A stretch of 39,536 bases of DNA from sequence record MK310182, one strand, 5' to 3'. This DNA comes from Escherichia phage NC-A. Under the pieces are notes generated by a model that was not told the DNA's origin, searched no databases, and saw nothing but the letters and a program-made list of their open reading frames with translations. Made by a program: the position numbers and the translations under genes. Positions 29,492 to 36,151 of the stretch are shown here, one piece after another (the first letter of the stretch is position 1; each line of letters begins with the position of its first letter).

Positions 29492-32400
29492 ATGGATAAG
29501 TACGATAAGAACGTACCAAGTGAATATGATGGTCTGTTCCAGAAGGCGGCTGATGCCAACGGGGTCTCTTATGACCTTTTACGTAAAGTCGCTTGGACGG
29601 AATCACGGTTTAAACCCACAGCTAAATCAAAGACTGGACCATTGGGCATGATGCAGTTCACCAAGGCAACCTCTAAGGCAATGGGACTGCGTGTTACCGA
29701 TGGGCCAGACGATGACCGACTGAATCCTGAGTTGGCTATCAACGCTGCCGCTAAGCACCTTGCGGGTCTGGTAGGCAAGTTTGATGGTGACGAACTCAAA
29801 GCTGCCCTTGCGTATAACCAAGGCGAGGGACGCTTGGGTAGTCCACAACTTGAGGCGTACTCTAAGGGAGACTTCTCGTCCATCTCTGAGGAAGGACGTA
29901 ATTATATGCGTAGCCTTCTGGATGTCGCTAAGTCTCCTATGGCTGGACAGTTGGAAGCATTCGGTGGTATCACCCCAAAGGGTAAAGGCATTCCGGCTGA
30001 CGTTGGACTAGCTGGAATCAGCCACAGTCAGAAAGTAACACAGGAACTTCCTGAGTCTACAAGTTTTGACGTTAAAGGTATCGAACAGGAGGCTCCGGCG
30101 AAACCATTCGCCAAGGACTTTTGGGAGACCCACGGAGAAACACTTGATGAGTACAACAAGCGTTCAACCTTCTTCGGATTCAAAGATGCTACCAAAGCTG
30201 TACTATCCAACTCAGTCGCTGGGATGGCTTTCCGTGCTGGTCGTCTTGATAATGGTTTTGATGTGTTTAAAGACACCATTACGCCGACTCGCTGGAACTC
30301 TCACATCTGGACTCCAGAAGAGTTAGAGAAGATTCGAACCGAGGTTAAGAACCCTGCGTACATCAATGTGGTAACTGGTGGTTCTCCTGAGAACCTTGAC
30401 GACCTCATTAAGCTGGCTAACGAGAACTTTGAGAATGACTCCCGTGCTGCCGAAGCTGGTCTAGGTGCTAAACTTAGTGCTGGCGTTATCGGCGCTGGCG
30501 TGGACCCACTCAGCTATGTTCCTATGGTCGGTGTGACTGGTAAGGGCTTTAAGCTAGTCAATAAGGCCCTTGTAGTTGGTGCCGAAAGTGCTGCACTTAA
30601 CGTTGCATCCGAAGGTCTCCGCACATCCGTAGCTGGTGGTAACGCTGACTACTCAGGTGCTGCTTTGGGTGGCTTTTTGTTTGGTGCTGGTATGTCCGCA
30701 ATCAGTGACGCTGTAGCTGCTGGACTGAAACGCAATAAGCCAGAAGTTGAGTTCGACAATGAGTTCATTGGTCCTATGATGCGAATGGAAGCCCGTGAGA
30801 CAGCACGCAACGCAAACTCTACGGACCTCTCTCGGATGAACACTGAGAACATGAAGTTTGAAGGTGAACATAACGGTATTCCTTATGAGGACTTACCGAC
30901 CGAGAAAGGTGCCGTGGTGTTACATGATGGCTCCGTTATAAGCGCAAGCAACCCAACCAACCCTAAGACTCTCAAAGAGTTCTCTGAGGTTGACCCTGAG
31001 AAGGCTGCGCGAGGAATCAAACTTGCTGGGTTCACCGAGATAGGCTTGAAGACCTTGGGGTCTGACGATGCTGACATCCGTAGAGTGGCTATCGACCTCG
31101 TTCGCTCTCCTACTGGTATGCAGTCTGGTTCCTCAGGTAAGTTCGGCGCAACAGCTTCTGACATCCACGAGAGACTTCATAGTACTGACCAGCGTACTTA
31201 TAACGACCTGTACAAAGCAATGTCTGACGCGATGAAAGACCCTGAGTTCTCCACTGGTGGTGCTAAGATGTCTCGTGAAGAGACTCGCTACACTATCTAC
31301 CGTAGAGCGGCATTGGCTATTGAGCGTCCAGAACTACAGAAGGCGCTCACTCCATCTGAGCGTATCGTAATGGACATCATTAAGCGCCACTTTGACACTA
31401 AGCGTGAACTCATGGAGAATCCAGCAATCTTCGGTAATACGAAGGCTGTAAGCATCTTCCCAGAGAGTCGTCATAAGGGAACATACGTTCCTCATGTTTA
31501 TGACCGCCACGCTAAGGCGTTGATGATTCAACGGTACGGTGCTGAAGGTTTACAGGAGGCCATCAAGAAGTCATGGCTAGCAAGTTATGTGTCAAGACCT
31601 GAAGTCAAGGCGCGAGTGGACGAGATGTTGGTAGAGCAGTTACGGGCATCTCAACCAACAGGTAAGACTGCGGGTACTACACCTAATAAGCACTCTTCTA
31701 TCGACACAGCACGTTACCAGATGAAACTGGATGATGCAGCTACACAGGCAAGTGATAAGGTATCGGAACTAAAAGACGTCCTAACAAACGCTGAGAAGCG
31801 AGTTGCGGACCGTGAAAGGAAACTCCAGAACTCCAAGGACAGACTAGCTTCTCATGAGGCTAAGCTGAGGGAGTTGGAAGAAAAACTAGCTGCTAAACCT
31901 AATAGCAAAACCATTCCTGTTAAGATTGAGAGCCGGAAGCAGATGATTGAGACCCAGAAGTCTCACGTCCGTATTAACACAGAGCGTCTCGACTACATGA
32001 AAGGACAGGCTGCTAGGGTCCAAGACAGAATCACCAAAGCCACCGCCGAAGCTGAAGCAGCAGCCTCCGCTGCCAAATGGCAGAAGACTACTGTTGACGG
32101 TGAGGGCACTACTGCTGGTGAGACTATATCAGGTAACGCACCTCAATCAGTACAAGAGGTGACTATGGATATGGTCGAGAAGTACGCTATGGACAAGGCA
32201 TATGGTATCTCCCACTCTGACAAGTTCTCCAACAGCTCCGTGATTGAAGAGAACATTGAGGGCCTAGTAGGTATTGAGAACAACTCGTTCCTTGAAGCCC
32301 GTAACTTGTTTGATTCTGACATATCTATCACAATGCCTGATGGACAACAGTTTGCGGTGAACGACCTAAGGGACTTCGATATGTTCCGCATCATGCCAGC

Positions 32401-33952
32401 GTATGACCGCCGTATTAATGGTGACATCGCCATCATGGGGTCTACTGGTAAAACCACTAAGGAACTTAAGGATGAGATTTTGGCTCTCAAAGCGAAAGCT
32501 GAGGGTGACGGGAAGAAGACTGGCGAGGTTCATGCTCTCATGGATACCGTTAAGATTCTTACTGGTCGTGCTCGACGCAATCAGGACACTGTGTGGGAAA
32601 CATCGATGCGAGCCATCAATGACCTAGGGTTCTTCGCTAAGAACGCCTATATGGGTGCTCAGAACCTTACGGAGATTGCTGGTATGTTTGCCACAGGTAA
32701 CGTGCGTGCTCTCGGTCACGGTATCCCAATTCTGCGCGATACACTTTACAAGTCTAAACCAGTTTCCGCTAAGGAACTCAAGGAACTCCATGCGTCTCTG
32801 TTCGGGAAGGAGGTGGACCAGTTGATTCGCCCTAAACGTGCTGACATTGTACAGCGCCTAAGGGAAGCGACTGATACAGGACCTGCTGTGTCGAACATCG
32901 TAGGGACCTTGAAGTATACCACACAGGAACTGGCTGCTCGCTCTCCGTGGACTAAGATGCTGAACGGAACCACTAACTACCTTCTGGATGCTGCGCGTCA
33001 AGGTATGCTTGGGGACGTTATCAGTGCTACCTTAACAGGTAAGACTACCCGCTGGGAGAAAGAGGGATTCCTTCGTGGAGCCTCCGTAACTCCTGAGCAG
33101 ATGGCTGGCATCAAGTCTCTCATCAAGGAACACATGGTCCGTGGTGAGGACGGGAAGTTTACCGTTAAGGACAAGCAAGCGTTCTCTATGGACCCACGAG
33201 CTATGGACTTATGGCGACTGGCTGACAAGGTAGCTGATGAGGCAATGCTGCGTCCGCACAAGGTGTCCTTACAGGATTCCCATGCGTTCGGAGCATTAGG
33301 TAAGATGGTTATGCAGTTTAAGTCTTTCACCATTAAATCCCTTAACTCTAAGTTCGTGAGGACCTTCTATGATGGCTACAAGAACAACCGAGCCATTGAC
33401 GCTGCGCTGACTAGTATCATCTCTATGGGTCTCGCTGGCGGTTACTACGCTATGGCTGCACACGTCAAAGCGTATGGAATGCCTAAGGAGCAACGTAAAG
33501 AATACTTGGAGCGCGCATTGGACCCAAAAATGATTGCCCACGCTTCGTTGTCTCGTAGTTCTCAATTGGGTGCGCCTTTGGCTATGGCTGACCTAGTTGG
33601 TGGTATCTTAGGGGTCGAGTCCTCCAAGATGGTTCGCTCCACGATTCTACCTAAGGACACCATGAAGGAACGTGACCCAAACAAACCGTACACCTCAAGA
33701 GAGGTAATGGGGGCTATGGGTTCTAACCTTCTGGAGCAGATGCCTTCCGCTGGCTTTGTGGCTAACGTAGGGGCCTCCCTAATGAATGCTGCTGGTGTTG
33801 TTAACTCGCCTAACAAGGCAACCGAGCAGGACTTCATGACTGGCTTAATGAACTCGACCAAAGAGTTAGTGCCTAACGACCCTCTGACTCAACAGCTTGT
33901 GTTGAAGATTTATGAGGCGAATGGTGTCAACTTGAAGGAGCGTCGGAAATAA
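29492..33952 (+). CDS. 16: Gene 16 internal virion protein D with N-terminal lytic transglycosylase domain (1486 aa)
   Basis: N-terminus MDKYDKNVPSEYDGLFQKAADANGVSYDLLRKVAWTESRF (SLT motif); rest collinear with T7 gp16 apart from an extra internal segment. Confidence 0.97.
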   Translation: MDKYDKNVPSEYDGLFQKAADANGVSYDLLRKVAWTESRFKPTAKSKTGPLGMMQFTKATSKAMGLRVTDGPDDDRLNPELAINAAAKHLAGLVGKFDGDELKAALAYNQGEGRLGSPQLEAYSKGDFSSISEEGRNYMRSLLDVAKSPMAGQLEAFGGITPKGKGIPADVGLAGISHSQKVTQELPESTSFDVKGIEQEAPAKPFAKDFWETHGETLDEYNKRSTFFGFKDATKAVLSNSVAGMAFRAGRLDNGFDVFKDTITPTRWNSHIWTPEELEKIRTEVKNPAYINVVTGGSPENLDDLIKLANENFENDSRAAEAGLGAKLSAGVIGAGVDPLSYVPMVGVTGKGFKLVNKALVVGAESAALNVASEGLRTSVAGGNADYSGAALGGFLFGAGMSAISDAVAAGLKRNKPEVEFDNEFIGPMMRMEARETARNANSTDLSRMNTENMKFEGEHNGIPYEDLPTEKGAVVLHDGSVISASNPTNPKTLKEFSEVDPEKAARGIKLAGFTEIGLKTLGSDDADIRRVAIDLVRSPTGMQSGSSGKFGATASDIHERLHSTDQRTYNDLYKAMSDAMKDPEFSTGGAKMSREETRYTIYRRAALAIERPELQKALTPSERIVMDIIKRHFDTKRELMENPAIFGNTKAVSIFPESRHKGTYVPHVYDRHAKALMIQRYGAEGLQEAIKKSWLASYVSRPEVKARVDEMLVEQLRASQPTGKTAGTTPNKHSSIDTARYQMKLDDAATQASDKVSELKDVLTNAEKRVADRERKLQNSKDRLASHEAKLRELEEKLAAKPNSKTIPVKIESRKQMIETQKSHVRINTERLDYMKGQAARVQDRITKATAEAEAAASAAKWQKTTVDGEGTTAGETISGNAPQSVQEVTMDMVEKYAMDKAYGISHSDKFSNSSVIEENIEGLVGIENNSFLEARNLFDSDISITMPDGQQFAVNDLRDFDMFRIMPAYDRRINGDIAIMGSTGKTTKELKDEILALKAKAEGDGKKTGEVHALMDTVKILTGRARRNQDTVWETSMRAINDLGFFAKNAYMGAQNLTEIAGMFATGNVRALGHGIPILRDTLYKSKPVSAKELKELHASLFGKEVDQLIRPKRADIVQRLREATDTGPAVSNIVGTLKYTTQELAARSPWTKMLNGTTNYLLDAARQGMLGDVISATLTGKTTRWEKEGFLRGASVTPEQMAGIKSLIKEHMVRGEDGKFTVKDKQAFSMDPRAMDLWRLADKVADEAMLRPHKVSLQDSHAFGALGKMVMQFKSFTIKSLNSKFVRTFYDGYKNNRAIDAALTSIISMGLAGGYYAMAAHVKAYGMPKEQRKEYLERALDPKMIAHASLSRSSQLGAPLAMADLVGGILGVESSKMVRSTILPKDTMKERDPNKPYTSREVMGAMGSNLLEQMPSAGFVANVGASLMNAAGVVNSPNKATEQDFMTGLMNSTKELVPNDPLTQQLVLKIYEANGVNLKERRK

Positions 33953-34024: not shown

Positions 34025-35899
34025 ATGGCTAACGTAATTAAAACCGTTTTGACTTACCAGTTAGATGGCTCCAATCGTGATTTTAATATCCCGTTTGAGT
34101 ATCTAGCCCGTAAGTTCGTAGTGGTAACTCTTATTGGCGTAGACCGCAAGGTCCTTATGATTAATACAGACTACCGTTTTGCTACGCGTACTACCATCTC
34201 ACTGACTAAGGCTTGGGGGCCAGCGGACGGGTACACTACCATCGAGTTGCGCCGAGTAACCTCCACGACCGACAGATTGGTTGACTTTACGGATGGTTCA
34301 ATCCTCCGTGCGTATGACCTTAACGTGGCTCAGATTCAGACGGTGCATGTAGCGGAAGAGGCCCGTGACCTGACTGCGGATACCATTGGTGTCAATAACG
34401 ATGGTCACTTGGATGCCCGTGGTCGTCGTATCGTCAACCTAGCGAACGCTGTGGATGACCGTGATGCTGTTCCATTTGGTCAACTTAAGGCCATGAATCA
34501 GAACTCGTGGCAGGCACGTAACGAAGCCTTACAGTTCCGCAATGAGGCTGAGACTTTCCGTAACCAAGCGGAGGGCTTTAAGAACGAGTCCGGCACGAAC
34601 GCTACGAATACCTATAAGTGGCGTAATGAGGCTGAGGGATTCCGTAATGAGGCTGAGCAGTTCAAGAATACTGCGACACAACAGGCTACCGCTGCTGGCG
34701 GCTCTGCGGCTGCTGCTCGCCAATCTGAGGTGAACGCTGCTGCCTCCGCTGCTGCTTCCGCTAACTCTGCTACTTTGGCAGAACAGCAAGCAGACCGTGC
34801 GGAACGTGAGGCGGATAAGTTGGGTAACTGGAATGCGCTTGCAGGAGCCATTGAGGGCGTTAATGAGAACGATGTAACGTTCAAAGGAGATATTAAAACC
34901 CCAATGGATGTTGAAGCTGGTGGACTGATATCCACTGGAGCAGGTCATATTACGAAGGGCTTAAGTGTTGGTGAGGCACTTGATGTTAAAGGGGTTACGG
35001 CTCTCCATAAGGATGTGTGGGTAGATGGTGTAGTTGTTGCCAATGGTGGCATACAACAACAATCAGCACCGAACACTTATAACGATATATGGAGGATGTT
35101 TATTAAAGGTGTACCAGCACACATCGGAAACCGACAAGGCCTTCACATAGGTTGGAACGAGACCAGCAATGGGGAGTCTGACTTTGTGACTAACAAAGGT
35201 GCAGGTGGTGGTGGTTTTGTTTTTCGCACGGTAAACTTTGAGAACTCTGCTGAGATAGGTCGCGTTACATTTATGGGTAACGGTGCAGTACGCGCCTTCG
35301 ATTTTCAGGCTGTTAATGGTGCTCGTATTGAGGCTGGAAATAATATAATTGGTGCAAGTATTTTCTCAGGAATGGGTAGCTGTCAATTTGATACTATGGG
35401 CAACTTACTTGGTGGTCTATGGAACAACGTTGGTGGTGATTTATATAACTACCTACAGAACAAGGCACACTTCGCTAAGCCGCCTGGAGGTGTTCAATTA
35501 TTTACCGCACGCGGTGTTGACTACCTTGAGGGCCTTGTGGATAACACAGCGGTTGGTTTCCGGTGGTTCCTGTCAGACAGAAGGCTTAAGGAAAACATAA
35601 AGGTTGTACGCTCCGCTGACGATATGCTTAATATTATCCGCTCGTACATCCCAGTTTCCTATAAGTATAAGGACTCTGAGTACACCGATAATCGTGGAAG
35701 AACCGTTACTGTTACTGGTAAGAAGTCTCGTGCAGGCTTCATTACTCAGGACCTGATCAGAATCTGGCCAGAAGCGGTAGATGTGTTGTCTGACGGAATG
35801 CAATCCCCAGACCCTAACCAAATCATCGGTGGGCTAATGCTGCTCGTTAAGAACCTAGATGAGCGGGTTCAGGAGCTAGAGAAGAAGAATAACGTTTAA
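34025..35899 (+). CDS. 17: Gene 17 tail fibre protein, chimeric (624 aa)
   Basis: Residues 1 to about 285 match T7 gp17 (MANVIKTVLTYQLDGSNRDFNIPFEYLARKF... and FRNEAE repeats); the C-terminal part is unrelated to T7 and ends in an intramolecular-chaperone-like domain. Confidence 0.95.
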   Translation: MANVIKTVLTYQLDGSNRDFNIPFEYLARKFVVVTLIGVDRKVLMINTDYRFATRTTISLTKAWGPADGYTTIELRRVTSTTDRLVDFTDGSILRAYDLNVAQIQTVHVAEEARDLTADTIGVNNDGHLDARGRRIVNLANAVDDRDAVPFGQLKAMNQNSWQARNEALQFRNEAETFRNQAEGFKNESGTNATNTYKWRNEAEGFRNEAEQFKNTATQQATAAGGSAAAARQSEVNAAASAAASANSATLAEQQADRAEREADKLGNWNALAGAIEGVNENDVTFKGDIKTPMDVEAGGLISTGAGHITKGLSVGEALDVKGVTALHKDVWVDGVVVANGGIQQQSAPNTYNDIWRMFIKGVPAHIGNRQGLHIGWNETSNGESDFVTNKGAGGGGFVFRTVNFENSAEIGRVTFMGNGAVRAFDFQAVNGARIEAGNNIIGASIFSGMGSCQFDTMGNLLGGLWNNVGGDLYNYLQNKAHFAKPPGGVQLFTARGVDYLEGLVDNTAVGFRWFLSDRRLKENIKVVRSADDMLNIIRSYIPVSYKYKDSEYTDNRGRTVTVTGKKSRAGFITQDLIRIWPEAVDVLSDGMQSPDPNQIIGGLMLLVKNLDERVQELEKKNNV

Positions 35900-35947: not shown

Positions 35948-36151
35948 ATGCTGTCTTTGGACTTCAATAATGAGTTAGTCAAGGCTGCACCTATTGTTGG
36001 CACTGGTGTGGCTGATGGCGCTGCGAGGCTTTTCTTTGGGCTGAGTCTTAATGAGTGGTTCTATGTTGCTGCTATCGCCTACACAGTGGTTCAGATTGGT
36101 GCCAAGGTAGTCGATAAGATGATTGACTGGAAGAAAGCCAATAAGGAGTGA
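35948..36151 (+). CDS. 17.5: Gene 17.5 class II holin (67 aa)
   Basis: MLSLDFNNELVKAAPIVGTGVADGAARLFFGLSLNEWFYVAAIAYTVVQIGAKVVDKMIDWKKANKE. Confidence 0.95.
   Translation: MLSLDFNNELVKAAPIVGTGVADGAARLFFGLSLNEWFYVAAIAYTVVQIGAKVVDKMIDWKKANKE

Follow-up and report, generated by a model that had tools for sequence, protein, structure and literature searches.

Gene 17 of Escherichia phage NC-A encodes a tail fibre protein, gp17, which we read as a mosaic of residues 1-290, 291-516 and 517-624 carrying a self-releasing chaperone of the peptidase S74 family at its C-terminal end. We give this reading a probability of about 0.9. The presence of the S74 domain on NC-A gp17 is confirmed here and was already known, as Pfam PF13884 is already precomputed for the exact protein in the protein database; published work likewise already covers the family, how it acts and its occurrence in this gp17 clade. 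Just one idea, drawn from sequence comparison, is mildly new: the chaperone-coding segment might double as a 3' homology arm. In the literature, a search for work on NC-A gp17 or on virion proteomics turned up just one review table listing MK310182. The value of the result lies in annotation and engineering, and it opens no new question.

The window analysed (39,536 bp) spans the entire genome of this phage, and T7 is ~90.5% identical to its first 25 kb. The ORF at 34025..35899 (+) encodes a protein 100% identical to QBG78753.1 / YP_009820189.1 ('tail fiber protein', Escherichia phage NC-A). The features of gene 17, in window coordinates, are as follows.

34025..35899, + strand: gene 17, ORF of the tail fibre protein, 624 aa plus stop codon (35897-35899)
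34025..34510, + strand: N-terminal tail-attachment domain, aa 1-162 (Pfam PF03906 Phage_T7_tail, E 1.2e-72)
34511..34894, + strand: T7-like shaft, aa 163-290; the likeness to T7 gp17 stops here, at the mosaic junction
34895..35572, + strand: distal region, presumed receptor-binding, aa 291-516, of the phiYeO3-12 / Bas102 / 64795_ec1 type
35570..35575, + strand: predicted scissile bond Leu516-Ser517, placed from position 1 of the Pfam model, the T5 cut site and the start of 3gud
35573..35575, + strand: Ser517 codon TCA (first base 35573), predicted nucleophile, conserved in 23/23 gp17 relatives and in 132/132 sequences once distant homologues are included
35588..35590, + strand: Lys522 codon AAG, predicted general base, conserved in 132/132 sequences; role taken from T5 (PMC4690869)
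35573..35896, + strand: intramolecular chaperone / peptidase S74 (ICA) domain, aa 517-624, 12.4 kDa (Pfam, PHROG, profile and fold)
35813..35893, + strand: predicted long C-terminal alpha-helix, aa 597-623 (helix 97-123, in the AF2 model, of a fragment beginning at aa 501)

The front of gp17 is that of a T7-type tail fibre: its PF03906 N terminus is homologous to T7 gp17 residues 1 to ~160 and near-identical to the solved T7 gp17 N-terminal structures 7boz and 8e4g, and T7 gp17 (553 aa) is 88% identical to the NC-A protein over residues 1-290. Beyond residue 290, the protein comparison found no similarity between the two. At the DNA level, similarity to T7/T3 stops at about gene nt 799-837, the T7 match itself ending at about nt 799, and protein similarity ends at residue ~290; the junction lies inside gene 17, in window 34823..34894 (aa ~267-290), and the downstream part is of the phiYeO3-12/Bas102 type. 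No homologue of the distal region, aa 291-516, was found among solved structures. A sub-threshold match to the YadA_stalk repeat, known from trimeric autotransporter adhesins, was seen at aa 135-169 (34427..34531; 24.5 bits vs a cut-off of 28.4), and gp17 of T7, Bas102 and phiYeO3-12 shows such a match as well. A scan for promoters and terminators around gene 17 gave nothing bearing on the chaperone domain.

The C-terminal part of gp17 matches Pfam PF13884 (Peptidase_S74, 'Chaperone of endosialidase') over residues 517-585, which cover model positions 1-57 of 58. The full-length protein scores E 1.6e-12 (48.0 bits vs a gathering score of 22), and the 124-aa C-terminal fragment scanned alone scores E 1.3e-13 (51.4 bits), so the match is far beyond chance. 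The same stretch is also matched by PHROG tail-fibre families of unrelated phages, long-tail-fibre distal subunits among them. The sequence-only reading had proposed an S74-like domain here from three hallmark motifs; the Pfam match bears the domain out, and the motifs WFLS517DRRLK522ENIKVV, GFITQDLIRIWPEAV and LDERVQELEKK are all present in the translation. Its further point, that T7 gp17 has no such domain, also stands, as the T7 protein consists of PF03906, PF20744 (gp37_trimer) and PF12604 (gp37_C), without S74. The domain length of ~107 residues that it gave is right for residues 518-624 and becomes 108 if Ser517 is counted, in which case the domain makes up the last 108 of the 624 residues of this fibre protein.

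In the stretch S517-D-R-R-L-K522, the serine occupies domain position 1 and the lysine follows five residues on, which is the spacing of Ser1264 and Lys1269 in T5. A library of 1.84 billion representative proteins, searched exhaustively with HMMER, yielded 144 relatives at E <= 1e-3, and in the alignment of 131 of these with the NC-A query (132 sequences), Ser517 and Lys522 are invariant and Asp518 is present in 131/132. In 97/131 homologues, no more than 15 residues follow the domain before the protein C terminus. Among the 23 aligned gp17 relatives, Lys522 is nearly invariant; the two exceptions, whose chaperone domain is divergent (23% identical), may reflect an alignment shift at this position.

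Similarity to solved chaperone domains is seen both in sequence profiles and in fold, and both point to K1F, T5, GA-1 and MyRF. A 23-sequence profile of distant homologues (A3), searched against solved structures, matched the tail fibre 8jov (E 5.7e-20), the phage S16 long-tail-fibre tip (gp37) with its chaperone, 6f45 (E 1.2e-16), the MyRF ICA domain 7dc3 (E 2.8e-12), the GA-1 neck-appendage chaperone 3gud (E 5.3e-9), the T5 L-shaped fibre 8hqz (E 4.2e-5) and the tailspike 6eu4 (E 3.3e-3). At E <= 0.01 this profile did not retrieve the K1F chaperone 3gw6, which only the fold search found. The likeness to the K1F and T5 chaperones claimed from the sequence is upheld. The K1F endosialidase chaperone (PDB 3GW6), founder of peptidase family S74, has only 13% identity to the NC-A domain, and its passenger is an enzymatic tailspike whereas that of NC-A is a fibre; the chaperone of the T5 L-shaped tail fibre pb1 (PDB 4UW8 / 8HQZ) belongs to a siphovirus, and its passenger, a 'bullet' tip, differs from that of NC-A.

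The AlphaFold2 model built on a diverse alignment (monomer, pLDDT 86.5) shows a mixed alpha/beta body with a beta-hairpin and a long C-terminal helix, the individual elements being a helix at 531-539, a beta-hairpin at 551-554 / 560-563, a helix at 574-580 and the long helix at 597-623. In keeping with the architecture of the T5 chaperone (PMC4690869), the latter would make up the trimeric coiled coil at the centre of the chaperone. An earlier model, for which the alignment was shallow and limited to close gp17 relatives, was poor (pLDDT 61.7), gave no significant Foldseek match and was discarded.

The same architecture has been studied in Yersinia phage phiYeO3-12, whose gp17 (645 aa) has the PF03906 N terminus, the distal region and the PF13884 C terminus of the NC-A protein. 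The two proteins are 60% identical overall and 86-88% identical in the chaperone domain, and Ser539 of phiYeO3-12 aligns with Ser517 of NC-A. They differ elsewhere, with 75% identity in the N-domain, 35% in the shaft and ~56% in the distal region, and their hosts are Y. enterocolitica O:3 and E. coli, respectively. On SDS-PAGE, recombinant phiYeO3-12 gp17 ran at ~58 kDa, vs a theoretical 69.4 kDa, together with a fragment of ~11 kDa (PMC7582827).

The mechanism is best described for T5 pb1, in which the chaperone trimerises, embraces the fibre tip and comes off when the Thr1263-Ser1264 bond is cut; Ser1264 is activated by Lys1269, and an Arg of the neighbouring subunit acts as a folding sensor (PMC4690869). 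The S1264A mutant of T5 remains uncleaved and is unable to compete for the receptor (PMC4690869). By analogy with the K1F, T5 and GA-1 systems, we infer that NC-A gp17 is cleaved, where it is cut and that its C-terminal domain is a chaperone, and we propose the following series of steps. Residues 1-290, of T7 type, would attach the fibre to the virion and form its shaft; the distal part, residues 291-516, is not of T7 type and presumably binds the receptor; and residues 517-624 would act as an intramolecular chaperone (peptidase S74 / ICA family) at the C-terminal end. Three chaperone domains would trimerise via their long C-terminal helices, and the chaperone trimer would nucleate the folding of the distal fibre trimer and set its register. 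When the fibre trimer has folded correctly, Lys522 would activate Ser517 for an attack on the Leu516-Ser517 peptide bond, which would free the 12.4 kDa chaperone and leave a mature fibre of 55.7 kDa (1-516) with its receptor-binding tip unmasked.

The exact position of the cut is the point on which our reading departs from the sequence-only reading, according to which the mature fibre ends at Ser517. A cut after the serine, as has been modelled for phi29, would release a slightly smaller fragment (518-624, 12.28 kDa); we consider this unlikely. T5 cuts between Thr1263 and Ser1264, and in both T5 and K1F the serine departs with the chaperone, so that it is absent from the mature T5 fibre (PMC4690869). 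Moreover, the Pfam model and the S74 domain assigned by UniProt to phiYeO3-12 gp17 (539-645) both begin at the serine, and the chain of the solved GA-1 chaperone (3gud) opens with SDERHK exactly at the serine aligned to Ser517. Because the T5 and K1F cut precedes the serine, the mature NC-A fibre probably ends at Leu516 and the released fragment would start with Ser517; the end proposed earlier is probably one residue off. The processed form of ~57 kDa proposed with it also needs correction, as the calculated masses are 55.67 kDa for residues 1-516 and 12.37 kDa for residues 517-624.

It is very improbable, in our judgement, that the S74-like domain is present on gp17 yet stays uncleaved, as a permanent distal knob on the virion. 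This would agree with the failure to locate the upstream trimer-sensing residues in NC-A: no counterpart of T5 Arg1250/Asp1239, which complete the active site from a neighbouring subunit, could be mapped in gp17, which was modelled as a monomer, because the distal (passenger) domain is not homologous to that of T5. Three residues ahead of the cut hardly vary among gp17 relatives, Arg496, Asp506 and Arg513, and are candidates for this role. Against a permanent knob stand the conservation of both Ser517 and Lys522 in 132/132 sequences and the removal of the near-identical phiYeO3-12 domain from the recombinant protein (PMC7582827). Furthermore, a retained domain would be expected to mask the tip, since the uncleaved T5 form cannot compete for the receptor (PMC4690869). 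A chance or low-complexity resemblance with no S74 domain at all is scarcely credible: with the fragment as a single query sequence, only marginal hits among solved structures were obtained (MyRF ICA, E 0.088; S16 gp37, E 0.77) and the word-indexed homologue search with the 124-aa fragment alone was empty, a full-length query being required, but such a resemblance is refuted by the Pfam match, the profile matches to solved structures and the fold match.

Apart from its part in folding, the chaperone-coding segment may have a further role, judging by the distribution of conservation along gene 17. The gp17 relatives compared come from phages of Escherichia, Shigella, Yersinia, Enterobacter, Citrobacter, Serratia and Klebsiella. 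Against 20 of them (alignment A1), the chaperone domain is 74-99% identical and the distal region 291-516 is 41-81% identical; the N-terminal domain is also much better conserved than the distal region. The gene of Escherichia phage MeretOppenheim (Bas102) has 83% nucleotide identity to the whole of NC-A gene 17. Bas102, 64795_ec1, Shigella phage ESh1 and Yersinia phage vB_Yep_9 show 83-86% DNA similarity over the full length, share the Pfam architecture of NC-A and differ from it mainly in the distal region 291-516. A C-terminal IMC domain has been published for the Bas102 fibre, and Bas102 is reported to depend on the O16 O-antigen. In phage HZ2R8, the DNA match to NC-A gene 17 is confined to the two gene ends. 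As conservation of the chaperone and N-terminal domains exceeds that of the distal region, and because HZ2R8 matches at both ends, we tentatively suggest that the chaperone-coding segment could be a conserved 3' homology arm that, together with the 5' attachment domain, would allow recombination to exchange receptor-binding cassettes among Teseptimavirus/Berlinvirus phages whose hosts are E. coli, Yersinia, Enterobacter, Citrobacter, Serratia and Klebsiella, a possibility that we would sooner doubt than assert. The pattern of conserved flanks and a variable middle is consistent with what would be expected if such cassettes were exchanged, and NC-A gene 17, with its T7 front half and phiYeO3-12-type back half, could be one product of such swapping. 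A separate observation concerns P0108 (551 aa) and P0113 (597 aa), two T7-like gp17 proteins whose N-terminal domain is 98% identical but whose distal region is unrelated and whose S74 domain has diverged, to only 23% identity with that of NC-A. These divergent S74 domains and unrelated distal regions indicate, at the level of sequence, that at least two distinct chaperone-bearing cassettes circulate on the T7-type fibre scaffold.

The position of the domain has consequences for work with this phage. For modelling, expression, receptor-binding studies or host-range swaps, the mature NC-A fibre would be taken as residues 1-516. A C-terminal tag on gp17 would be lost with the released chaperone, and chimeric fibres would need residues 517-624 to be kept or supplied in order to fold. 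A chaperone that acts in cis and is then released would also explain why the T7-like NC-A can do without a further gene dedicated to fibre assembly. The holin gene 17.5 (35948..36151) begins 48 bp past gene 17, and because this gap is only 48 bp there is no Tfa-type chaperone gene between the two; the absence of a separate Tfa-type assembly gene is consistent with a chaperone in cis.

Upstream of gene 17, the internal virion protein gp16 (ORF 29492..33952) is longer in NC-A than in T7 (1486 aa vs 1318 aa). The two proteins are 95% identical to residue 715 and highly similar again from ~885. Between these lies an NC-A insertion of ~168 aa (aa ~716-884, window 31637..32143), which is charged and heptad-like (…SELKDVLTNAEKRVADRERKLQNSKDRLASHEAKLRELEEKLAAK…) and is probably a coiled-coil sequence.
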